In this document: one piece after another, positions 7,049 to 63,950 of the stretch
Position numbering within the stretch: position 1 is the stretch's first letter
Layout: each line of letters starts with the position of its first letter
Assembly (NCBI RefSeq): GCF_028369095.1
Contig: NZ_JAQNDN010000024.1
Coordinates: forward strand, 345,350-409,349
Direction: 5' to 3'
Origin: Nannocystis radixulma
GTDB lineage: Bacteria > Myxococcota_A > Polyangia > Nannocystales > Nannocystaceae
DNA length: 64,000 nucleotides
The notes under the pieces: generated by a model
Databases searched by the model: none
Seen by the model: the letters and a program-made list of their open reading frames with translations, nothing else
What the model was told of the DNA's origin: nothing
Made by a program: the position numbers and the translations under genes

Positions 7049-8266
7049 TCAGCCGATGATCATGTCCTCGCGGCGGGCCACACCCCCGGCGGCGAAGCGA
7101 CCCGGGGACCAGCGCGCGAGCATCGGGTGGGCCTCGCCGTCGACGAGCCAGCGCGCCAACAGTCGGCCGACGGCCGGCGCCATCATGAAGCCGTGGCCGG
7201 TGAAGCCGCAGACCTGAATGAAATCGGGGTGTCCGGGGCTGGGGCCGACGATCGCGTCGCCGTCGGGCGAGACGTCGTAAGGACCGACCCACTGGCGCAG
7301 GACCTTCATCGCCGCGGTGATCGGCATCAGCCGCGTGAGCGTGCGGCTCAGGTGGGTGAGGAAGCGGAGGCTGGAGTGGAGGGTGAGGCTCTCGTCGCTG
7401 CCGTCGGGCGCGTCGGGCAGGCTGATGCCGGTGACGAGCTCGCCGCGGGTGCTCTGAGAGAAGTAGAGGCCGGTCGAGAGGTCGACGACCAGGGGGTCGA
7501 GGAACGGCTTGAGCGGCTCGGACGAGAGGATCTCGTGGCGGTGCGGCTTGTTGGGCAGGTCGATGCCGAGCTGCCGGTTGAGCGCGCCGGACCAGGCGCC
7601 GGTGGCGTTGACGACCCGGGCGGCGCGCACGACCTCGCCGGTCGACAGGTGCAGCGCGTAGCCGCGGGCCAGCGGCTCGACGCGGGTGACGCTGGTGTGG
7701 GTGCGCAGGAGGACGCCGCGCTCGACCGCCTTGGCGGCGTAACCCCACACGAAGGCCCACGGGAAGACGACCCCGTCCTCGGGGTTGAAGGTGGCGAGCC
7801 GGACCTCGGCGACGTCGAGCTGCGGGACGATCGCCTGCGCCTCGGCGGCGGTGAGCAGGCGAGTCGGCGCGCCGACCTCGGCGTGGAGGTGGACGTTGCG
7901 CTCGAGCCGACGCTCGCCGGCCTCGCTGCGGGCCAGGAACAAGTAGCCGCCCTGGCGGAACCACAGGTTGATGCCGAGTTGCTGCGCGAGGTCCTTGCAC
8001 AGCTCGATGCTGTCCATCATCAGGCGGACGTTGCCGGCGTCGCCCCACTGCATGCGCACGCCGCCGCCGTTGCGGCCGGAGGCGCCGCTGACGAGGTAGC
8101 TGCGCTCGATGACGGCGACCGACAGCGGCGGCTTGCCCTTCGCACCTGTCCCGGAGAGCAGGGCCAGGTGGTAGGCGAGCCCCAGGCCCATGATGCCGCC
8201 GCCGATCACGGCGACGTCGACGTCGGCCGGCAGGGCGGTGTCGGAACGGCCCATCGCTGCCGTCAT
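7049..8266 (-). CDS. FAD-dependent oxidoreductase, sarcosine oxidase beta / HcnC / OoxB-like subunit
   Basis: DVDVAVIGGGIMGLGLAYHLA...GRNGGGVRM... The ATG at 8266 overlaps the stop of the upstream small gene. The rest of ORF 7049..10048 is an Arg-rich artefact. Confidence 0.8.
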   Translation of the reverse strand: MTAAMGRSDTALPADVDVAVIGGGIMGLGLAYHLALLSGTGAKGKPPLSVAVIERSYLVSGASGRNGGGVRMQWGDAGNVRLMMDSIELCKDLAQQLGINLWFRQGGYLFLARSEAGERRLERNVHLHAEVGAPTRLLTAAEAQAIVPQLDVAEVRLATFNPEDGVVFPWAFVWGYAAKAVERGVLLRTHTSVTRVEPLARGYALHLSTGEVVRAARVVNATGAWSGALNRQLGIDLPNKPHRHEILSSEPLKPFLDPLVVDLSTGLYFSQSTRGELVTGISLPDAPDGSDESLTLHSSLRFLTHLSRTLTRLMPITAAMKVLRQWVGPYDVSPDGDAIVGPSPGHPDFIQVCGFTGHGFMMAPAVGRLLARWLVDGEAHPMLARWSPGRFAAGGVARREDMIIG

Positions 8267-8599: not shown

Positions 8600-8765
8600 A
8601 TAGGGCTGTCCGCGGGGACATGTGCGAGCGCGGGGCGGACGACGGGGCCTGCCGGCGCGAGGGGGCTGTCCGCGGGGACATGTGGGAACGGGGGGCGGCT
8701 GTCCGCGGGGACAGGTGCGGGCGCGGCGACTCAGGCGCGGGCATGGCTGTCCTTCGGGGCAGGTG
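8600..8765. repeat. four copies of the hairpin repeat GGCTGTCC-GCGG-GGACA(T/G)GTG between the subunit genes of the HcnABC-like operon
   Basis: CTGTCC at about 8606, 8666, 8698 and 8747, each followed 3-5 nt later by GGACAKG. The last copy overlaps the C-terminus of the large-subunit gene. Confidence 0.8.
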
Positions 8766-10032
8766 ACTCGGCGAGCGCGCGCACGAGGGCGGCGGCGCAG
8801 CGGTCGACGCTGGCCTGGATCTCCGCGGGGGTGGTCGCGCCGGCCAGCTCGCCGACGGCCCACAGGGTCCACGGCGGCGGGGGGGCGGTTTGGGCGTCGG
8901 CGGCCTCGAGCGGGTGAGCGGCCGGGCCGGCGGCGATCCGGCCGTCGGCGTCGCACTCGGGGGCGAAGCCGGCCCCGGTGAAGCGGATCGGCGCGCCGGC
9001 CTGGGCGGCCAGCTCGAACGCGGGGGCCGGGTCGGGGGCGAGGGCGACGAGGTCGCAGCGGAGGATCTTGCCGTCGTCGAGCTGCACGCCCTTGACCCGG
9101 CGGGCGCCGAGCAGCTTGTGCACGCGCGCCGGGGCGACCCGCTCGGCGCCGAGGCCGGCGGCGAGCAGTTCGGCGCGGGGACCCTCGCCGATGACGACGA
9201 CGCGCGCGGCGAGGCGGCGGCCTGTCTGTTCGAGCATGTCCGTGAGGCCACGTGCCGAGACGACCCCGGGGAGGTCGTTGTTGGCCAGCGGGATGGTCGG
9301 CTCGTGGGCGCCGACGGCCAGCACGACGTGGCGCGGGCGCAGCCGGTGGAGCACGGGCGGGTGCTCGGAGGCGGCCGCCCACAGCCGCTCCTGCGGGTAG
9401 CAGGCGAACACGCCGACGCCGGCGAGCAGGTGGGCCGGGCGGTCGGCGGCGGGCAGGGCGGCGGCGGGCCGACGCTCGACGACCAGCGGCGGACGCCCGG
9501 CGGCGGCGAGGGCGGCCGCGAGCGCGCGGCCGGAGCGACCTGCCCCGATGACCAGGACCTCGGGGACATGGTCGAAGAGACCGGCGGCGTCGTCGGGCGG
9601 GGCGTCGGGCAGCTCGCCGAAGCCGGCCAGCTCGCGGGCGACGCCCTGCATCATCTGGTTGGCGAGCCGGGGGTAGACGACGAGGTGGTGGTGGTCGATG
9701 CCGCGGCGGAAGATCTGGTCGACGAGGGCGGTCGGGTCGAGGCCGCCGTAGGTGTTCTGCGGCTCGACGACCATGTCCTCGCGGACAGGCGTGAGGCAGG
9801 CGCGCTGGTTGGGCCGGCCGTCGACGCGCACCAGGCAGGTGCCGCAGCCGCCGTGGAGGCAGGCCGGGCCGCGCAGGCGGCGGTACTTGGCGCTGCGGCT
9901 GGTGGCGAGCTCGCCCGCGGCGATCAGCGCCGAGGCGACGGTGTCGCCGGGACAGGCGGCGACGGCGGCGCCGTCCCAGCGGAAGGTGAGCGTCGGCGGC
10001 CCGGGCGGAGCGAGCAGAGGTGCCTTGGGCAC
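8731..10032 (-). CDS. pyridine-nucleotide-disulfide oxidoreductase with N-terminal 2Fe-2S domain (HcnB / OoxA-like large subunit)
   Basis: 2Fe-2S-like N-terminus ...ACLHGGCGTCLVRVDG...; FAD/NAD Rossmann VLVIGAGRSGRALAAAL and VVVIGEGPRAELLA. GTG near 10032 is the preferred start; the ATG at 10227 adds an Arg-rich leader. Confidence 0.65.
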   Translation of the reverse strand: MPKAPLLAPPGPPTLTFRWDGAAVAACPGDTVASALIAAGELATSRSAKYRRLRGPACLHGGCGTCLVRVDGRPNQRACLTPVREDMVVEPQNTYGGLDPTALVDQIFRRGIDHHHLVVYPRLANQMMQGVARELAGFGELPDAPPDDAAGLFDHVPEVLVIGAGRSGRALAAALAAAGRPPLVVERRPAAALPAADRPAHLLAGVGVFACYPQERLWAAASEHPPVLHRLRPRHVVLAVGAHEPTIPLANNDLPGVVSARGLTDMLEQTGRRLAARVVVIGEGPRAELLAAGLGAERVAPARVHKLLGARRVKGVQLDDGKILRCDLVALAPDPAPAFELAAQAGAPIRFTGAGFAPECDADGRIAAGPAAHPLEAADAQTAPPPPWTLWAVGELAGATTPAEIQASVDRCAAALVRALAESPAPKDSHARA

Positions 10033-10251
10033 GGGCCTGCGATAGCACGCCGCGCCGCGCGAAGACACAGGCGCCGGCCGCCGCGCCGCTTGCCCTCGGT
10101 CACGAGCGCCGGCGTCCGTGACAAGGTGGTGGGCGGCGCGAGAATGGCGACGCGATCGGCGACGGTCCGCAGCGCGGAGCGGCCAGCGTTCACGGCGGTG
10201 GTCAGCGCGTCGCGGACCGGTGTGCAACCTGCTGCCGGGTTGCGTGCGGTC

Positions 10252-10983
10252 TCAGACGCGCGGCGGGCGGGGGCCGAAGATCGCGGTGCCGACGCGGACC
10301 ATGGTCGCGCCTTCCTCGATCGCTACCTCGAAGTCGGAGCTCATGCCCATCGACAAGTGGGTCAACTCGACGCCGGGGCGGGCCACGGCGGCTTCGCGGC
10401 GCGCCAGCTCGCGCAGGCGGGCGAAGTACGGCCGGGTCTGCTCCGGCTCGCCCTCGGGCGGGATCGCCATGAGGCCGACGCAGCGCAGCTCGGGGCGGGC
10501 GGCGACGAGGTCGAGCAGCGCGGGCAGCTCGGCCGCGCTGACGCCGGCCTTCTGCGCCTCGTCGCCGACGTTGACCTCGACCAGGATCTCGAGCGGGGTG
10601 GTGGCGCCGCGACCGGCCCGCAGACGGGCGACCTCGCGGGCGAGCTCGTCGACGAGGGCGGGCCGATCGACGGTGTGGACCAGGGCGCCGACGCCGACGA
10701 CCTTGCGGACCTTGTTGGTCTGCAGCGGGCCGATGAAGTGCCAGCGCGGGGGGACGACGGCGGCGGCGACGGCCTCGGCCTTGGCGACCAGCTCCTGGGC
10801 GTAGTTCTCGCCGAAGTCGCCGAGGCCGGCGCGGCGGGCCGCGATCACGGCCTCGGCGGGCTGCTTCTTGCCGACGCCGATCAGGATCGGCTCGAGGCCG
10901 GGGCCGCGGCGGGCCACGGCGGCGGCGATCCGCGCGCGCACGGCGGCGAGGTTGGCGGCGATGTCGTCTGGCTCCAAGGACAT
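10252..10983 (-). CDS. yggS: YggS-family PLP-binding homeostasis protein
   Basis: ILIGVGKKQP...HFIGPLQTNK... alanine-racemase-N fold, 243 aa. Confidence 0.85.
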   Translation of the reverse strand: MSLEPDDIAANLAAVRARIAAAVARRGPGLEPILIGVGKKQPAEAVIAARRAGLGDFGENYAQELVAKAEAVAAAVVPPRWHFIGPLQTNKVRKVVGVGALVHTVDRPALVDELAREVARLRAGRGATTPLEILVEVNVGDEAQKAGVSAAELPALLDLVAARPELRCVGLMAIPPEGEPEQTRPYFARLRELARREAAVARPGVELTHLSMGMSSDFEVAIEEGATMVRVGTAIFGPRPPRV

Positions 10984-16888: not shown

Positions 16889-17676
16889 GCCCCGGCTCCC
16901 AGCGCGCACTGCCAGCCGGCGGCGAGGTGCGGCTCGAGGGCGACGCGGGCCGGAGCGCCGGCGGCGAGGGCGTCGACCAGCGCGAGCGCGGCGGCGCACG
17001 GGTTGTCGGCCAGCCATGCCGGCGCGGGGCGTGCTGGCGCGAGGGACATGTCGTTAGGGCCCTGTTCCAGGCGACATGTCGTGGCGGGCATGTCCGAGGG
17101 TGCAGGTGCGGACAGGGCGAAGGCGGCCGCGAACGGGCCCCAGCGGCGGCCGGCGGCCAGCGGCTCGGGCAGGGGCTCCTCGGCGATGACGAGCACGACG
17201 TCGCCCTCGCCGGCGGCGACGAGCGCGGCGCACTCGAGCAGGCCCATGGCGAGGGTGGAGCGGCCGGCCGAGAGGGCGGCGTTGCCGGCCCGGCTGCCGG
17301 TGGCGATCGAGACGTAGCCTGCGGCGGTGTTGTGGACGCTGTTGTGGAATTTGGTCGGCGACAGCGGCTCGCCGGCGACGAGCAGGGCGGCCAGGAGGTC
17401 GAGGGTGGTGCGGATCTCGCCGTAGACGGAGCCGTAGACGAGGGTGGCGCCGGTCGCATCGAGGCCGCCGGCGCGCAGGGCCTGGGCCGCGACCTCGGCG
17501 GCCATGCGGGTGAGCAGGCTGGTGCGCCGGCGCATCATCGGCGGCAAGAGCTCGGCCTTCGGCGTGGCACTCTGGTCTTCGGGACAGGCGTCGGGGCGGG
17601 CCTTCCAGGCGGCGAGGTCGGGGTAACCGGGGGCCCAGAAGCCGAGGCCACGGACGGTGAAGGCGAGCGCGCTCAT
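16885..17676 (-). CDS. beta-ketoacyl-synthase N-terminal-like (CLF-like) protein carrying an in-frame repeat insertion
   Basis: 263 aa; KS-N-like TLVYGSVYGE...FHNSVHNTAAGYVSIA. Residues ~190-215 (APSDMPATTCRLEQGPNDMSLAP) are encoded by a five-unit 14-bp repeat array at about 17042-17118. Confidence 0.6.
   Translation of the reverse strand: MSALAFTVRGLGFWAPGYPDLAAWKARPDACPEDQSATPKAELLPPMMRRRTSLLTRMAAEVAAQALRAGGLDATGATLVYGSVYGEIRTTLDLLAALLVAGEPLSPTKFHNSVHNTAAGYVSIATGSRAGNAALSAGRSTLAMGLLECAALVAAGEGDVVLVIAEEPLPEPLAAGRRWGPFAAAFALSAPAPSDMPATTCRLEQGPNDMSLAPARPAPAWLADNPCAAALALVDALAAGAPARVALEPHLAAGWQCALGAGA
17042..17118. repeat. 14-bp phased GACATGTC array (5 units) inside the KS-N-like coding sequence
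   Basis: ATGTC/CTGTT/ATGTC/ATGTC/AGGTG at about 17048, 17062, 17076, 17090 and 17104; exact 14-bp spacing. Confidence 0.8.
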
Positions 17677-29199: not shown

Positions 29200-29256
29200 G
29201 GGCATGTCGTCAGGAGCATGTTTGATGAGACATGTTGAAAGGGGCATGTCGTGAGC
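29200..29256. repeat. 14-bp phased array (4 units) in the trpF - Mur-ligase spacer
   Basis: ATGT at about 29204, 29218, 29232 and 29246, exactly 14 bp apart. Confidence 0.85.
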
Positions 29257-35308: not shown

Positions 35309-37171
<1,863 letters not shown>

Positions 37172-37273
37172 AGACGCCGTTTTGGGCGGCGGCGGGAAGT
37201 AAACCCGGCGGCGATGCGCTGGCAAGTCGGGCCGATGTGAGCGGCACGGGCGTTCGCGCTGGTGCCAGGACGG

Positions 37274-37594: not shown

Positions 37595-38104
37595 GGGTTG
37601 GGATCTGCACTGAACACATAATCAGTGTCCAGCGATCACCCATGCTGCCCTGAACTCTTGATCAGGAGTGGACCAACCAAATCGCGCGGCGCAAAACTGC
37701 GCCGAGCGGCGAATTGGCCGCAATAGCGGCCCGGGGGCCGTTTCACGGCCGGGGCGGAGACGCGCGCAAAGCGGCGGCAAAAGCGGCGAGCGGCAGCGCG
37801 CCGAGCTGGCCTTCAGGACAGGGAGATCGCGTCGCGGGCGAGGCTGGCGCCTGCTTTCGCAGAGCTGGCATTTTCGCGCGGCGAGCGGTCTGCGCTTTCG
37901 AGGCAGGGGCGAAATCGCGCCGGAGCGGGGCGAGCGGGAAAATGAGAGAGGGAGCAAGAACGCGTATAGCGTCCAGACGGCATTCGTCAGCGCCCCGACG
38001 AGCGGCCGGTGGGACGGGCGTGGCTGGAGGTGCTGCCAGGCGTCCCCGGGTCGGGTGGCGGAGGCGGGGCCGCGAAGGCGACCGATGGCCGCTCGTCTGT
38101 CGAG

Positions 38105-38335
38105 GCGGCTGGTCGAAAGGACAGCGGACGCCGGCTCGGCGCGCTCGTCGTCGGGCTGGTCGCAAGGACAGCTGACGCCGGCTCGGCGCGCTCGTCGTCG
38201 AGGCGGCGCTGGTCGCAAGGACAGCCGACAGCGGCGGGCTCGACGTCGAACGGCGCGGAGCACGAGGACAGGTCGTGTCGCTCGGTCGTCGACCCATCGG
38301 GTGGCCGAAAGGACAGACGAGGCCGGTGGGGACAC
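38105..38335. repeat. tandem ~55-bp repeats (3-4 copies) carrying a GGTCGMAAGGACAG core
   Basis: GCTGGTCG(A/C)AAGGACAGC(G/T/C)GACGCCGGCTCGGCGCGCTCGTCGTCG repeated at about 38108, 38162 and 38217, with a degenerate copy at about 38300. It sits in a ~780-bp non-coding gap downstream of rlmE. Confidence 0.7.
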
Positions 38336-38375: not shown

Positions 38376-38996
38376 TCAGGGCCGGCGAGCGGTGGCGCTG
38401 GCCTTGAGGCCGCGGCCGACGAGGTACTGCTCGGTGCTCGAGGCGCGCGAGTTCTTGGCGTGGTACGGGCGGGCTTCCTGGAAGCTGGCCCGGAAGCGCT
38501 TGAGCAGCTCGCCGAAGCCGCCGCCCTGGAACACCTTGGCGACGAGGTGGCCGCCTGGCCGAAGGACCATGCAGGCGATGTCGAGGGCGCGCTCGGCGAG
38601 GCCCTCGCTGCGGACGACGTCGGTGTGGCGGTCGCCGGTGGTATGCGGGGCCATGTCACTGAGGACGACGTCGAACGGGGCGAGGTCGGGCGCGGGGGCC
38701 CACTCGAACACGTCGGCGATCCGGTGCTCGACGTACGCGGGGAAGCTGAGGACGACGGGCTTGAGGTCGAGGCCGAGGACGTAGCCGGTGTCGGTCACGC
38801 GGTCGCCGGCGTACTGCATCCACGAGCCGGGCCAGCAGCCGAGGTCGAGCACGCGCGCGCCCTGGCGCAGGATGTGGAACCGCTTGTCGATCTCCTCGAG
38901 CTTGTAGACCGCGCGCGCGGCGTAGTTCTCCTGCTTGGCGCGCTGGTAGGCGGCGTCGTGGCGGGTGGCCTTGTCGCTGAGGCGGGGGCGAGGCAT
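38376..38996 (-). CDS. rlmE: 23S rRNA (uridine2552-2'-O)-methyltransferase RlmE/FtsJ
   Basis: VLDLGCWPGSWMQY...VVLSDMAP...K..D FtsJ motifs. Confidence 0.85.
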   Translation of the reverse strand: MPRPRLSDKATRHDAAYQRAKQENYAARAVYKLEEIDKRFHILRQGARVLDLGCWPGSWMQYAGDRVTDTGYVLGLDLKPVVLSFPAYVEHRIADVFEWAPAPDLAPFDVVLSDMAPHTTGDRHTDVVRSEGLAERALDIACMVLRPGGHLVAKVFQGGGFGELLKRFRASFQEARPYHAKNSRASSTEQYLVGRGLKASATARRP

Positions 38997-39069
38997 GACG
39001 GTGTCTTAAGCAGCCGAGCCGGCTCTCGGCCGGCTCGAACTTGGGGACATGTCCCGAAGGACAGGGCCT

Positions 39070-44516: not shown

Positions 44517-44741
44517 CGGTTCTCGTCTGCAGCATACGTGCGACGGCTCGGGGCGGCGTGGATCTGGTGCGCCAGGGCAGCGAAACGCCCGCGGGCGCGG
44601 GGGCGCCGGTTGTGGCGGGCTGGAGCCGCCTCTCGGGGGACGCGGCGGGTCGGGATTCCGCGCGATCTCGGGGGTCGGCGGACGCGGGGGGCGGCGCCCG
44701 GCGCGTGGGGGACGGCGCTCGCCCCGGGCGCTGCGGCGGTT

Positions 44742-44836
44742 CTCAGGATGTCTGAAAGGACATGTGAGTCGGGCGGGCCTTTGCCCGCGGCGCCGCTGCG
44801 CCGTCAGGATGTCTGAAAGGACATGTGACTCGGGCG
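44742..44836. repeat. two copies of a ~35-bp element CAGGATGTCTGAAAGGACATGTGA(G/C)TCGGGCGGGC, 60 bp apart
   Basis: Perfect duplicate apart from 1 nt; contains the ATGTC-N6-GACAT hairpin. Confidence 0.8.
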
Positions 44837-44862
44837 GGCTCGCGTGTGCGAGGACGAGGGGG

Positions 44863-48111: not shown

Positions 48112-48190
48112 GACATGTCATGAACGACATGTCGAGAAAGACATGTTTGTCGAGATATGTCCTCCGGGACATGCCCCGAAGGTCATGGCT
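48112..48190. repeat. 14-bp phased array, 6 units
   Basis: ATGTC/ATGTT/ATGCC at about 48115, 48129, 48143, 48157, 48171 and 48185. Confidence 0.85.
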
Positions 48191-53175: not shown

Positions 53176-53282
53176 ACGGGACATGTCCTGAGGGCATGTC
53201 CATGCGTCGCCGGGACATGTCGATGAGGACATGTCTGAGAGAGAATGTCATGAAGGACATGTCACATGGGATATGTCCGGAC
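53176..53282. repeat. 14-bp phased array, 7-8 units (the longest in the window)
   Basis: ATGTC at about 53183, 53196, 53217, 53231, 53245, 53259 and 53273. Confidence 0.85.
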
Positions 53283-56577: not shown

Positions 56578-56642
56578 GAGGACATGTCGATACGAACATG
56601 TCTAAATGGGCATGTTGATGAGGACATGCCACGTCGGACAGC
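56578..56642. repeat. 14-bp phased array, 4 units
   Basis: Core starts at about 56584, 56598, 56612 and 56626. Confidence 0.8.
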
Positions 56643-57126: not shown

Positions 57127-57178
57127 CATGTCGAGGAGGACATGTCGGTGAGGGCATGTCAACAAGGACATGCGCGAA
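57127..57178. repeat. 14-bp phased array, 4 units
   Basis: GGCATGTCGAGGAG GACATGTCGGTGAG GGCATGTCAACAAG GACATGCGCG. Confidence 0.8.
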
Positions 57179-57502: not shown

Positions 57503-57536
57503 GACGGGCGCTCAGGCGCGAGGTGGCGGGAGAGCT

Positions 57537-57720
57537 GGCGAGAATGGCCGATGCAGAGGCGCGGGGCTGCGGGAAACTGGGTGGGGCGGGCCGGACGCGG
57601 CGAGAATGGCCGATGCAGAGGCGCGGGGCTGCGGGAAACTGGGTGGGGCGGGCCGGACGCGGCGAGAATGGCCGATGCAGAGGCGCGGGGCTGCGGGAAA
57701 CTGGGTGGGGCGGGCCGGAC
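57537..57720. repeat. three tandem 61-bp direct repeats
   Basis: GGCGAGAATGGCCGATGCAGAGGCGCGGGGCTGCGGGAAACTGGGTGGGGCGGGCCGGACGC repeated three times at about 57537, 57598 and 57659. The unit shares GGCGAGAATGG and GGGCGGGCCGGACG with the adjacent inverted-repeat element. Confidence 0.85.
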
Positions 57721-57722
57721 GC

Positions 57723-57860
57723 GGCGAGAATGGGTCCCTCGCGACGCGAGACCTGCCATGCCAGATGCTCGACGCCGATGTGGTGCTTGGGACATGTCCG
57801 ACGATTGGCCCGGCGGCTGCGCGTCAGGCATGGGGCCCCTCGCTGCGTCCCATTCTCGCC
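57723..57860. mobile_element. MITE-like 138-bp element, copy A, with 12-bp TIRs GGCGAGAATGGG / CCCATTCTCGCC and a central GGGACATGTCC core
   Basis: A near-identical copy lies in inverted orientation at 58576-58713; terminal inverted repeats are visible; no transposase-sized ORF is associated. Confidence 0.55.
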
Positions 57861-57899
57861 GCGTCCGGCCCGCCCCGCGGGGATTGTCTCGGGCCCCGC

Positions 57900-58450
57900 T
57901 CGTCGTGTGGCAACGAATGTCGTGCCGGCGAATCGGCCGTGCGGGGCGGCGTGTGTCTCGGTGTGGCTCGTCGTGACGAAGGTGTGAGAGCGAATCGACG
58001 GTGCGGGACGGCGAGAGTCTCGGGTGCGGCTCGGTGAGACGAATGTCGTGGGGGCGAAGCGGCTGTGCGGGACGGCGAGCGTCTCGGGTGTGGCTCGTCG
58101 AGACGAACGTCCTGGGGGGCGAAGCGGCTGTGCGGGACGGCGAGAGTCTCGGATGCGGCTCGGTGAGACGAATGTCGTGGGGGCGAAGCGGCTGTGCGGG
58201 ACGGCGAGAGTCTCGGGTGTGGCTCGTCGAGATGAATGTCGTCGGACGAATCGACGTGGGGGCAGGGCGAGAGTCTCGGGTGCGGCTCGTCGAGATGAAT
58301 GTCGTGGGGGCGAAGCGGTTATGCGGGACGGCGAGCGTCTCGGGGGCCGAAAGCCGCGCGGGAACGAAAATCGTGCGAGTGAATCGCGTAGGGACGGGGC
58401 GAGTATCTCGGGCCCGGCTCGTCGTGTGACGAGGAACGTCGCGCTGGCGA
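57900..58450. repeat. about eight tandem ~64-bp GC-rich repeats
   Basis: Unit GAATGTCGTGGGGGCGAAGCGGCTGTGCGGGACGGCGAGAGTCTCGGGTG(C/T)GGCTCG(G/T)(T/C)GAGA(C/T). The CGGGACG landmark recurs at about 58004, 58068, 58133, 58197, 58261 and 58324. Each unit contains a GTCTC...GAGAC inverted repeat. Overlapping ORFs here are treated as artefacts. Confidence 0.8.
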
Positions 58451-58575
58451 TTCGGGTGCTGCGGGCGTGGGAAGAGAACCGGGAGAAGCAGCAGTACCAC
58501 CATTCCAGCGGCACGACGGTCCTCGCGTCTCGTCGAGCGGGGCCCGAGACGATCGTCGCGGGGCGGGCCGGACGT

Positions 58576-58713
58576 GGCGAGAATGGGACGCAGCGAGGGG
58601 CCCCATGCCTGACGCGCAGCCGCCGGGCCAATCGTCGGACATGTCCCAAGAACCACATCGGCGGCGAGCATCTGGCATGGCAGGTCTCGCGTCGCGAGGG
58701 ACCCATTCTCGCC
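58576..58713. mobile_element. MITE-like 138-bp element, copy B (inverted relative to copy A)
   Basis: Its reverse complement matches 57723-57860 with only about 3 mismatches. Confidence 0.55.
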
Positions 58714-58866
58714 ACGCCCGGCCCGCCCCACCCAGTTCTCCCGCAGCCCCGCGCCCTCGAATCGGCCCGGCTCCTCGGGCTGATGCGTCCGGTCGGCTCC
58801 CCGCGCCTCGCATCGGCCCGCGTCCGGTCCCCGTGCCTCGCATCGGCGCCCGGCTGCTCCGACGAG

Positions 58867-60036
58867 TCACGCGCGGCCGGCGAGGGCGACGATGCGGTCC
58901 ATCATGCTCTCGACCTCGGCCTCCGTGTTGTAGAAGTGGGGCCCGAGGCGGAGGCCGCAGTTGGGGCGCCAGTCGAGCTTGTAGCGCTCGTCGATGAGGA
59001 CCTTGCTGGCCTCCTCGCTGCCCGCGAAGTCGACGGCGACGAAGCCGGTGCGGCGCTCGTGCTCGAGCGGCGAGTGGACGACGAGGCCGGCGGCCTGGGC
59101 CCGGTCGATGATCCGCTGGCACAGCGCGAGGTTGTGGGCGCGGATCCGCGGCACGCCGATCTCGTGCAGGTTCTCGTAGGCGGCGCGGGCGACGTAGTAG
59201 GCGGGGATCGAGGGCGTGCCGGCGAGGAAGTGGCGGTGGTCGTCGGCGAAGCGGATCGGCGGCGCCTCGAAGGCGAACGGGTCCTGGTGGCCCATCCAGC
59301 CGACGAGGCGCGGCCTGAGGCGCTCGCGCACCTCGGGCTTCATCCACATGAAGGCGGTGCCGGGGCCGCCGCACAGCCACTTGTGGCTGCCGCCGACGAC
59401 GATGTCGGCGTCCCACTCGGCGACGTCGATCGGGACGGCGCCGGCGGTCTGGTAGACGTCGACCATGACGAGCGCGCCGACCTCGTGGGCCCGGCGGGTG
59501 ATCGCGGTGATGTCCTGCAGGGCGCCCGAGACGTAGATGCCGTGCGACAGCGGGACGATCGCGGTCCGCTCGTCGATCGCCTCGAGCATGCGCTCGGTCG
59601 GGATCGTCATGCCGTCGTCGGAGGGCACGAGCGCGAGCTCGGCGCCGAGGTCGGTGAAGCGGTCCCACACGTAGAGGACGTTGGGGAACTGCAGCGCCTC
59701 GACGACGACGCGGTTCTTGCCGCGGGAGTACTCGAGACAGCTGGCGATCGCGGCCTGGAAGTAGGCGACGTTCTGGTTGAGGATCGTCTGTCCGGGCGGG
59801 GCATTGAGGAAGCGCGCGGCGCTGTCGGCGGTGTCGCGCATGACGTCGAGCCAGTGCGGCCACACCTCGACGCCCTCGCCGGCCCAGTCGTCGGTGTACT
59901 TCTGCAGGGCGTCGGCGGCCTGCCGCGGCATCGCGCCCATGCTGTTGCTGTTCATGTAGACCGAGTGGGCGAGGATCGGGTAGTCGCTGCGGTAGCGGGC
60001 CAGCTCGGGCTGCAGTTCGGGGCGGATCGGAGTCAC
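58867..60036 (-). CDS. kynureninase-like class-V aminotransferase (PLP enzyme)
   Basis: GTG at 60036 with AAGAGGA RBS; VVGGSHKWLCGGPG PLP-lysine region; 389 aa. Confidence 0.75.
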   Translation of the reverse strand: MTPIRPELQPELARYRSDYPILAHSVYMNSNSMGAMPRQAADALQKYTDDWAGEGVEVWPHWLDVMRDTADSAARFLNAPPGQTILNQNVAYFQAAIASCLEYSRGKNRVVVEALQFPNVLYVWDRFTDLGAELALVPSDDGMTIPTERMLEAIDERTAIVPLSHGIYVSGALQDITAITRRAHEVGALVMVDVYQTAGAVPIDVAEWDADIVVGGSHKWLCGGPGTAFMWMKPEVRERLRPRLVGWMGHQDPFAFEAPPIRFADDHRHFLAGTPSIPAYYVARAAYENLHEIGVPRIRAHNLALCQRIIDRAQAAGLVVHSPLEHERRTGFVAVDFAGSEEASKVLIDERYKLDWRPNCGLRLGPHFYNTEAEVESMMDRIVALAGRA

Positions 60037-63902: not shown

Positions 63903-63950
63903 GGACATGTCGAATAGGGCATGTCCGGGCGGGCATGTCGTGATGGCCAG
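63903..63950. repeat. 14-bp phased array, 3 units
   Basis: GGGACATGTCGAAT AGGGCATGTCCGGGC GGGCATGTCGTGAT. Confidence 0.75.

Follow-up and report, generated by a model that had tools for sequence, protein, structure and literature searches.

Kynureninase and atl genes lie 5 bp apart in N. exedens (L005) and in two other relatives (L011 and L014), but in the window (the whole stretch of 64,000 nucleotides of Nannocystis radixulma DNA that was analysed) their spacer measures 1364 bp and is entirely taken up by a repeat locus. What kind of element has filled this spacer, and how is it built?

The kynureninase-atl insertion and its boundaries

The original prediction, made from the letters of the window, placed a structured repeat region between atl and a kynureninase-like gene, and all four of its repeat classes are indeed present, far above chance. 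The flanking gene order otherwise matches that of N. exedens on both sides. Given the 5-bp spacer of N. exedens and the two other relatives, the locus is a lineage-specific insertion; in L012 and L013, the kynureninase gene and atl are separated by 94 bp. Neither a transposase nor an integrase or reverse transcriptase (RT) gene was found near the locus, and the neighbouring genes are housekeeping genes.

The insertion meets a gene on either side. The atl-side junction (57503-57536) extends from the start codon of atl (57502) to the first repeat unit and reads ...CCTCGCGCCTGAGCGCCCGTC-ATG on the minus strand. It is common to the related locus L007 (CCGCGCCTGAGCCCGTC-ATG) and is missing from N. 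exedens, L011 and L014, whose sites are empty. This junction resembles the stop region of the kynureninase gene (CGCGCGTGA followed by GCGCC), of which an imperfect copy, CGCGCcTGA-GCGCC, adjoins the ATG of atl, and on the strength of this likeness the copy may be a target duplication. A clean target-site duplication is not definable, with an empty spacer of just 5 nt. The kynureninase-side end (58768-58866) comprises the terminal unit in two copies, each shortened to 30 nt (58792-58851; CCCCG.GCCTCGCATCGGC.), together with the junction, and the kynureninase stop codon lies at 58867-58869.

Arms, hairpins and tandem arrays

Two arms in inverted orientation make up the conserved part of the locus. 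The left arm (M-L; 57670-57935, plus strand) consists of an outer flank, a 170-nt hairpin and an inner flank, and this is the unit that is conserved between loci. The right arm (M-R; 58509-58767, minus strand) is its inverted copy, as 57670-57927 matches 58767-58509 over 259 nt with an identity of 92%. Hairpin H1 of the left arm (57707-57876, plus strand) is closed by terminal stems that form a perfect 28-nt inverted repeat (57707-57734 and 57849-57876) and carries the apex GGGACATGTCC at 57789-57799. It is predicted to fold into one long hairpin with a minimum free energy (MFE) of -123.4 kcal/mol (z -6.15 against shuffles). Hairpin H2 of the right arm (58560-58729, minus strand), with its apex motif at 58636-58647, reaches -128.4 kcal/mol (z -9.23). 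When the full-length element is folded as a single strand, 220-242 base pairs are predicted between the two arms.

A 138-bp element with 12-bp inverted ends had been proposed here. The ends (GGCGAGAATGGG/CCCATTCTCGCC) are present, but they are only the inner part of the 28-nt inverted repeat, so the element measures 170 nt and not 138. The proposed second copy, inverted and with about 3 mismatches, is there as described: three differences fall inside the 138-bp core, and the likeness continues over 259 nt. In all of the full copies (4 of 4), the flanks are co-conserved with the hairpin, which gives an arm of about 260 nt that runs from GGCCGAT... to ...GTCGTGCCG. No direct repeat flanking the 170-nt hairpin was detected in the arm alignments, and self-comparison revealed no further copy of any part of the locus elsewhere in the 64-kb window.

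Two pairs distinguish the stem of H2 from that of H1: one C-G has become U-A, which is a compensatory change, and one A-U has become G-U. Among the four arms, 5 of the 89 consensus hairpin pairs carry double (compensatory) changes, and the apex motif CATGTCC is present even in the most diverged arm. The hairpin is thus apparently maintained, though compensatory changes in a DNA palindrome can also come about through intrastrand templated repair without selection. As a side observation, the hairpin apex contains one copy of the palindromic motif GGACATGTCC, which fills Nannocystis intergenic spacers in 14-bp-phased arrays. Because of this apex copy, the element may help to identify the factor that reads these arrays.

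The outer end of the left arm is reiterated in a tandem array (57537-57733, plus strand) with a period of 62 bp and 3.2 copies, which are 100% identical. The array had been described as three perfect 61-bp direct repeats, and the copies are perfect, while the size needs correction to 62 bp. Each unit combines the outer flank of the arm (CCGATGCAGAGGCGCGGGGCTGCGGGAAACTGGGT) with the left hairpin stem. An 11-nt direct repeat, GGCGAGAATGG, can be read at the boundary of every unit, and this repeat is a candidate slippage substrate.

The core minisatellite (57877-58470, plus strand) is composed of 64-bp units with a higher-order period of 129 bp, and its units are degenerate at both ends. Clear copies number 6.8 (57913-58344; 82% matches), and with the degenerate ones included the array reaches from about 57878 to 58465 and comes to roughly 9 units, where about eight had been predicted. 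The GTCTC...GAGAC inverted repeat was found in the 64-bp units as expected. In folding, lone 62-nt and 64-nt units do no better than shuffles (z -1.2 to +0.9), and since the single folds are not significant, the units were rejected as structured RNAs in their own right. A CRISPR array was considered and rejected too, as the units stand head-to-tail with no unique spacers and no cas-like neighbours. The minisatellite is a tandem expansion of the arm's own inner flank and not foreign DNA caught between two elements. Between this array and the right arm lies a unique spacer (58471-58508), which has no match in the self-comparison or in the related loci.

Relatives and a second insertion site

At the atl site, L017 (kynureninase identity 99%) has the same junction as the window, with the terminal unit arranged differently: after the kynureninase stop codon it shares the first 12 nt and then diverges in the arrangement of the terminal unit. 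In L007 and L008 (92% related), only the atl-side end of the element is kept. With the altered terminal arrangement in the one and the reduction to the atl-side end in the others, structural change of the locus is, as judged by these alignments, rapid. An ORF downstream of the kynureninase gene in L015 and L016 was tried as a further insertion and turned out to be an ordinary membrane-protein gene. One related contig ends inside the element.

A second site was found in another lineage of Nannocystis, between hsp33 and a pseudouridine synthase (PseudoU_synth_2) gene, where L010 (JGI) and L018 (ENA), two independent assemblies with 99.8% identity, contain an arm, tandem repeats and an inverted arm. 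N. punicea and N. pusilla lack an arm in the same spacer, which is 85 bp long in the former and 221 bp in the latter. The left arm of the window is 90.6% identical to one of the L010/L018 arms and 80% identical to the other. Conservation between the loci is limited to the arms (80-91%). The core sequences are unrelated, yet at both loci the core repeats the inner flank in tandem. At the second site, the insertion reaches about 100-130 nt past the conserved arm termini, and its boundaries are not sharp. The original prediction had compared the locus to a pair of MITEs bracketing a minisatellite. In that form the comparison is not supported: the 138-bp unit does not stand alone as a MITE, since the flanks are conserved together with the hairpin, the hairpin has no flanking direct repeat and the arms are paired at both loci, where each pair forms one composite.

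L007 and L018 both come from the metagenome assembly ERZ27246275. In L007, the fragment has the diagnostic GGGCCCCGTTCTC in common with one L018 arm, to which it is 90% identical, compared with 85-87% to the window arms. The presence of both in one assembly, with L007 closest to an L018 arm, suggests that a genome has two or more such loci and that they turn over inside it.

In total, three loci of the family are known. A search of species-representative genomes (one per species) for GGCGAGAATGG-N100-130-CCATTCTCGCC gave four matches, all in unrelated taxa, and these are chance matches only, as they do not align with the element. The pattern was probably too strict, since the diverged L018 arm and the L007 fragment would fail it too, and the negative result is accordingly weak. 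The metagenome scan with a conserved 20-mer returned one true locus (L010) and one chance match inside a coding sequence (L009). No copies were found in a scan of viral contigs or by distant blastn against plasmids and phages, and the six-frame translation of the arm matched only the sister locus (P0121) among 5.8 billion predicted proteins. Judged by the exact-termini and protein scans, the repeat family is either rare or diverges quickly at its ends. A literature search on Nannocystis repeats or MITEs found nothing specific.

Competing explanations and comparison with known systems

On balance, and with some reserve, we favour the explanation that the locus is a non-coding, non-autonomous, foldback-like composite repeat which is mobile now or was so recently. 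The two inverted arms of about 260 bp would be its ends, each with a 170-nt near-palindromic hairpin, and the variable core between them would have arisen as tandem copies of the arm inner flanks, the outer termini being reiterated as well. On this explanation, the 5-bp gap between kynureninase and atl genes received the element in a recent Nannocystis lineage. Its movement would depend on a trans-acting protein that recognises the conserved arms, and the 62-bp and 64-bp arrays would be by-products of replication slippage or template switching beside very stable hairpins, with a copy number that changes fast. The element would have no product of its own; for the host, atl would be uncoupled from the kynureninase gene, and read-through transcripts would gain long double-stranded segments. 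Neither an autonomous partner nor an enzyme that could mobilise the element turned up in the window, viral contigs, plasmids or phages, and it is possible that the two insertion sites reflect a duplication by recombination instead of transposition. If the foldback-like explanation holds, Nannocystis has a low-copy family with long-hairpin ends and a fast-evolving minisatellite core, an architecture that we do not know from other bacteria. Such an element splits tightly coupled gene pairs, breaks short-read assemblies and could serve as a strain marker.

Other explanations differ in how well they cope with the same evidence. It is improbable that the arms encode a functional small RNA or an mRNA processing or stability element that selection keeps at each site for the control of atl or of the gene downstream. 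The hairpins are very stable and conserved and show some compensatory changes, both loci lie between co-directional genes with an arm end toward the start of the downstream gene, exactly the atl-side end is kept in L007, and the apex CATGTCC survives in the most diverged arm, all of which would suit such a function. However, the locus has no meaningful Rfam match (E <= 1 and E <= 10), and the promoter and terminator scan found no sigma-70-like promoter or intrinsic terminator. In most relatives the same spacers do not contain the element, which is therefore dispensable, and the gene pairs at the two sites are functionally unrelated. Copy number and core sequence are also unconstrained, and the units fold no better than shuffles. 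The suggestion of a structured RNA locus in the original prediction thus receives no positive support. An invertible DNA switch, in which the 259-bp arms would let the 581-bp core flip and alter atl expression, is very improbable. The core is flanked by long inverted repeats of 92% identity and is arranged likewise in L010/L018, but the neighbouring genes encode no recombinase domain, and the core has no promoter-like site and is not conserved between loci. As far as is known, phase-variation switches work with short inverted repeats and have a dedicated recombinase, and RecA-driven inversion at this locus would be a mere by-product. That the locus is a mis-assembled collapsed repeat or the gene of a repetitive low-complexity protein is hardly credible. 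Three perfect 62-bp copies could in principle stem from assembler behaviour; yet independent assemblies reproduce the junction (L017) and the architecture (L010 and L018), and the arms differ at 8% of their positions, unlike a product of collapse. The locus is indeed spanned by overlapping ORFs, 487-518 aa long, but they have a flat GC content across codon positions (0.68-0.74), compared with a GC3 of 0.94-0.98 in the two flanking genes, atl and kynureninase. The Pfam search of these ORFs gave no match, and their sole homologue, among the 5.8 billion predicted proteins, is an equally spurious ORF on the sister locus. The region is non-coding and the ORFs are artefacts, in agreement with the original prediction.

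N. exedens itself brings in a further candidate, as msDNA-like repeats of this species, Retron-Nex1/Ne160 (Lampson & Rice 1997), are described in the summary given in PMC6868368. The arms could be orphan msr-msd-like modules of this type, with the hairpin as msd and the inner flank as msr, copied and inserted via a reverse transcriptase encoded elsewhere, and the 62-bp and 64-bp units would then be duplicated pieces of msr/msd. We regard this as rather unlikely. As far as the summary describes these repeats, there is agreement in the genus, in the size class of the hairpin (170 nt here, 160 nt for the msDNA), in the duplication of flanking units and in the lack of an RT. The 170-nt hairpin (z -6 to -9) is a long stable stem-loop of msd type, and the arm fold, with an outer stem (GGCCGAU/AUCGGCC), a side stem-loop and a long hairpin, follows the same order as the general layout of retron ncRNAs (PMC7736814). 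In 3 of the 4 arms, the fold of the G-rich "sense" strand is more stable than that of the complementary strand by 10-20 kcal/mol (16 versus 8 G-U pairs), and strand-biased folding would suit a single-stranded product; however, this asymmetry is a trivial result of G-richness. Moreover, no RT-like ORF (YxDD motif, >=200 aa) exists anywhere in the 64-kb window, and Rfam, which presumably contains the retron msr family, gave no retron match at E <= 10 but only two chance matches to unrelated families. The putative a1/a2 stem has merely about 7 bp. The priming-G contexts at the inner end of a2 are TAGC, CAGC and GAGC (PMC6868368), while the letters after the outer stem are UCGC when the arm is read in the msr-like orientation and GCAGA when it is read the other way, neither of which is a canonical myxobacterial context. 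Retrotransposed msDNA copies are expected as single hairpins, not as inverted pairs with conserved flanks, and the exact-termini scan found no copy in the species-representative genomes, among which we assume N. exedens to be. Only enterobacterial and other retron RTs, and no myxobacterial one, were found in PDB, and a retron review with the classification supplements listed no ncRNA sequence from Nannocystis.

More doubtful still is the proposal that the arms are orphan retron templates or products, that is, RT-copied msDNA-like hairpins re-inserted in intergenic spacers, with the 62-bp and 64-bp units as scars of repeated initiation or termination. If it were true, the locus would be a sequence-level case of retron-mediated retrotransposition in bacteria, an idea that was reportedly raised for Nannocystis in 1997 and, to our knowledge, never settled. 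If the arms do derive from a retron, the locus would make it possible to test concretely whether msDNA retrotransposes in bacteria.

Several known systems can be set beside the foldback-like composite that we favour. By its description in PMC6868368, Ne160 of N. exedens belongs to the same genus, has a hairpin in the same range (about 160-170 nt) and duplicated pieces at its flanks, and likewise lacks a nearby RT, while an inverted-pair architecture is unmentioned in what that summary says of the Ne160 locus. With bacterial MITEs and palindromic intergenic repeats, the locus has in common the lack of coding capacity (flat codon-position GC, no Pfam match, no true homologues), perfect terminal inverted repeats (28-nt hairpin ends, within 259-nt arms of 92% identity), folding into a single imperfect hairpin, a place in short co-directional spacers, insertion polymorphism among close relatives and the absence of a transposase of its own. 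Correia elements of Neisseria and ERIC sequences of enterobacteria are whole-element palindromic repeats with tens to hundreds of copies. In contrast to these and to MITEs, the unit here is an arm of about 260 bp with conserved flanks, it occurs in inverted pairs 0.6-0.8 kb apart, its copy number is apparently very low and it has no known parent insertion sequence. In Streptococcus pneumoniae, the BOX elements (boxA - boxB(n) - boxC) are about 100-400 bp long, contain boxB units of 45 nt and occur many times in a genome. They likewise have conserved end modules that surround variable tandem subunits and ends that are able to pair, but the Nannocystis element is larger (1.2-1.4 kb), its arms are themselves 170-nt hairpins, and its core units, which originate in the arm flank, vary from locus to locus. 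Eukaryotic foldback (FB) transposons possess long inverted arms with tandem sub-repeats and a mostly non-coding, variable middle. They belong to another domain of life, and no associated transposase is known for the Nannocystis element. The likeness is an architectural one, which comprises the inverted arms with sub-repeats, the non-coding middle and the snap-back of the whole element.

Anatomy and folding of the locus

The repeat locus fills the entire 1364-bp gap between the kynureninase stop codon (58867) and the atl start (57502), with both genes on the minus strand. The kynureninase-like protein shares 90% identity with its Nannocystis exedens counterpart, and its close matches all come from Nannocystaceae, so the window (GC 72.6%) belongs to a Nannocystis-like myxobacterium. 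The gene order is also that of N. exedens (GCV_T, GCV_H, unknown gene, kynureninase, atl, unknown gene, ECF sigma factor), and no transposase, integrase or reverse transcriptase was found in the neighbourhood of the locus.

All repeat classes named in the original prediction are present, but several of their sizes had to be revised. The three 61-bp direct repeats are perfect copies, but with a period of 62 bp (57537-57733; 3.2 copies, 100% identity). The 12-bp inverted ends of the 138-bp element exist, but they form the inner portion of a perfect 28-nt inverted repeat (57707-57734 / 57849-57876), which makes the hairpin element 170 nt long. Its second copy is inverted as described (58560-58729). 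The 64-bp array is real, with 6.8 clear copies (57913-58344) instead of about eight, a 129-bp higher-order period, and an extent of about 57878-58465 when degenerate units are included. Similarity of the two copies reaches far past the hairpins (57670-57927 versus 58767-58509; 259 nt, 92%), and self-comparison found no part of the locus elsewhere in the 64-kb window.

As a whole, the locus forms a single large, imperfect palindrome. Starting at atl, a 34-nt junction is followed by three tandem 62-bp units, each made of the arm's outer flank plus the left hairpin stem and bounded by an 11-nt direct repeat GGCGAGAATGG. Then come the left arm with its hairpin H1 (57707-57876), the minisatellite, its 64-bp unit derived from the inner flank of the arm, a unique spacer of 38 nt, and the right arm in inverted orientation with hairpin H2 (58560-58729). 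One full and two shortened 30-nt terminal units lead up to the kynureninase stop codon, and thus both ends of the locus are reiterated about three times.

H1 is predicted to form one long hairpin (-123 kcal/mol; z = -6.2 against dinucleotide shuffles), and the fold of H2 is equally good (z = -9.2). For the four full arms, the RNAalifold consensus contains 89 pairs, five of which are changed on both sides with pairing kept (four of the five in the terminal stem). Within an arm, the outer and inner flanks pair with each other (GGCCGAU/AUCGGCC and GCGGGGC/GCCCCGC), so that one small stem-loop is left at the side. The G-rich strand, taken inward from the outer flank, has a fold 10-20 kcal/mol more stable than that of its complement in three of the four arms (16 versus 8 G-U pairs); this difference is expected from G-richness alone and identifies no functional strand. 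Single 62-nt and 64-nt units, the latter originally proposed for a folding check, are no more structured than shuffles. For the full-length single strand, the predicted minimum-energy fold has arm-arm pairing (220-242 pairs) instead of local hairpins. Whichever fold forms, long duplexes would arise in a read-through transcript or an exposed single strand.

Insertion sites of the repeat family

The distance from kynureninase stop to atl ATG is 5 nt in N. exedens and two further relatives (L011, L014), and 94 nt in L012/L013. The locus is a non-coding, lineage-specific insertion. L017, from an independent sequencing run (99% kynureninase identity), matches the window over the 12 nt that follow the stop codon and then has a differently arranged terminal unit. 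This 1291-bp contig stops 69 nt past the stop codon, inside the repeat locus, which suggests that the locus routinely breaks short-read assemblies; the family may consequently be under-represented in public contigs.

L007 is the closest metagenomic relative with a sufficiently long contig. This contig and L008 (92% identity) keep only the atl-side end, namely the outer flank, the left stem and some 30 nt of hairpin sequence. Beside this truncated arm (L007 2113-3877), the rest of the kynureninase-atl gap is taken by a Cys_Met_Meta_PP (PLP enzyme) gene, and the GC of this gene looks lower on reading the sequence. Foreign DNA has thus entered this one spacer in more than one form. The sequence CGCGCCTGAGCGCCCGTC lies directly before the atl ATG in both the window and L007. 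Its likeness to the kynureninase stop region plus the ancestral spacer would fit a target duplication, but in sequence this rich in GC such a duplication is no more than a possibility.

Scanning metagenome contigs with a 20-mer that is conserved in both the window and L007 recovered L010. Its 99.8% identical counterpart L018 stems from a different data source. This sister locus lies between hsp33 and a PseudoU_synth_2 gene and consists of an arm, tandem inner-flank copies, a unique middle, tandem copies and an inverted arm, with the terminus reiterated three times. Identity to the window arms is 90-91% for one of its arms and about 80% for the other; the cores have no sequence in common. In N. 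punicea and N. pusilla this spacer measures 85 bp and 221 bp, respectively, with no arm in either, so the sister locus represents an independent second insertion. One assembly (ERZ27246275) contains both L018 and L007, and the L007 fragment has diagnostic substitutions in common with an L018 arm (90% identity, versus 85-87% to the window arms); on these grounds one genome probably carries at least two loci, with exchange or recent copying between them. The repeat family occupies at least two insertion sites that arose independently, its structure turns over fast, and what it conserves as a unit is the arm (about 260 nt). The proposed likeness to a pair of MITEs around a minisatellite holds in part: the family would be MITE-like, but its conserved unit is the arm rather than the 138-bp element, and the minisatellite derives from the arm's own inner flank.

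Apex motif and phased spacer arrays

Each hairpin tip carries one copy of GGGACATGTCC, a motif far more frequent in the window than expected (31 sites versus 1.2, allowing up to one mismatch) and almost confined to intergenic spacers. CATGTCC is still found at the apex of the most diverged arm. Short intergenic spacers are filled with (G)GACATGTC(C) arrays in strict 14-bp phase, and a histogram of the distances between ATGTC sites has its peaks at 14, 28 and 42. Such arrays lie at 53180-53275, 48112-48178, 57127-57172, 56581-56628, 29203-29255, 63904-63944 and 17045-17100 in the window, and in relatives at 7520-7780 of the N. exedens contig (L005), 4970-5054 of L019 and 3970-4110 of L020. In N. 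punicea and N. pusilla they occupy the empty hsp33 spacer, in N. exedens the one downstream of atl, and their positions are conserved in these three species.

Other repeats were also seen in the window. A duplicated segment of about 61 bp at 44740-44860, of the form caggatgtctgaaaggACATGTga[c/g]tcgggcggg, has related single copies at 10980 and 22422 that overlap predicted gene starts, and could form a small repeat family of its own with the same ACATGT core. A tandem repeat at 38090-38271 (47/100-bp period, about 2-3 copies, 76-82% matches) sits in a gap of about 1.1 kb between the predicted genes 35309-37273 and 38376-39005. The sequence ggctgtccgcggggaca[t/g]gtg occurs three times in close succession (8600-8730) immediately downstream of the stop of gene 8731-10251 (minus strand).

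Origin of the locus and comparison with known elements

On balance, we favour a non-autonomous composite repeat insertion mobilised in trans, with arrays formed by slippage next to the hairpins. The composite would be comparable to a MITE or foldback element stripped of its former cargo, and the 62-bp and 64-bp arrays could stem from slippage or template switching beside the hairpins. The 62-bp unit was probably amplified recently, because an 11-nt direct repeat bounds it and its copies are 100% identical. The insertion would have parted atl from its former upstream partner.

That the arms are orphan retron msr-msd-like modules, copied by a reverse transcriptase encoded elsewhere, is a less likely explanation. 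Msr-msd-like modules would fit the msDNA-like repeats reported in N. exedens, which resemble the locus as described in the summary in PMC6868368. However, no reverse transcriptase is encoded in the 64-kb window, the locus has no Rfam match except two chance matches to unrelated families (E <= 10), a canonical priming-G context is not apparent, the outer stem appears to have just 7 bp, and retrotransposed msDNA would not give an inverted pair. A functional RNA or regulator is improbable, since most relatives lack the element in the same spacers and the locus has no promoter, terminator or family match. Even less can be said for an invertible switch, as neither a recombinase gene nearby nor a promoter-like site was found.

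We give almost no credence to an artefact or a gene. Independent assemblies (L017; L010/L018) contradict a mis-assembly, and codon statistics contradict coding. In the ORFs of 143-518 aa across the locus, GC stays flat at all three codon positions (0.62-0.76), while GC3 is 0.94 in atl and 0.98 in the kynureninase gene. No Pfam match was obtained for these ORFs, and the six-frame translation of one arm, searched against 5.8 billion predicted proteins, matched only P0121, the product of an equally spurious ORF in the sister locus. These results bear out the original view that the locus is non-coding and its ORFs artefacts; no conserved repetitive protein with homologues emerged.

The element matched nothing in plasmids, phages or viral contigs. 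There is no doubt that it is real, and its build is unusual. Bacterial palindromic intergenic repeats include MITEs, Correia and ERIC. The element would work like these, its modular build is similar to that of pneumococcal BOX elements, and its overall shape is close to that of eukaryotic foldback transposons. Unlike all of them, it has long hairpin-containing arms that are paired and inverted, cores that derive from the arm's own flank, and an apparently very low copy number.
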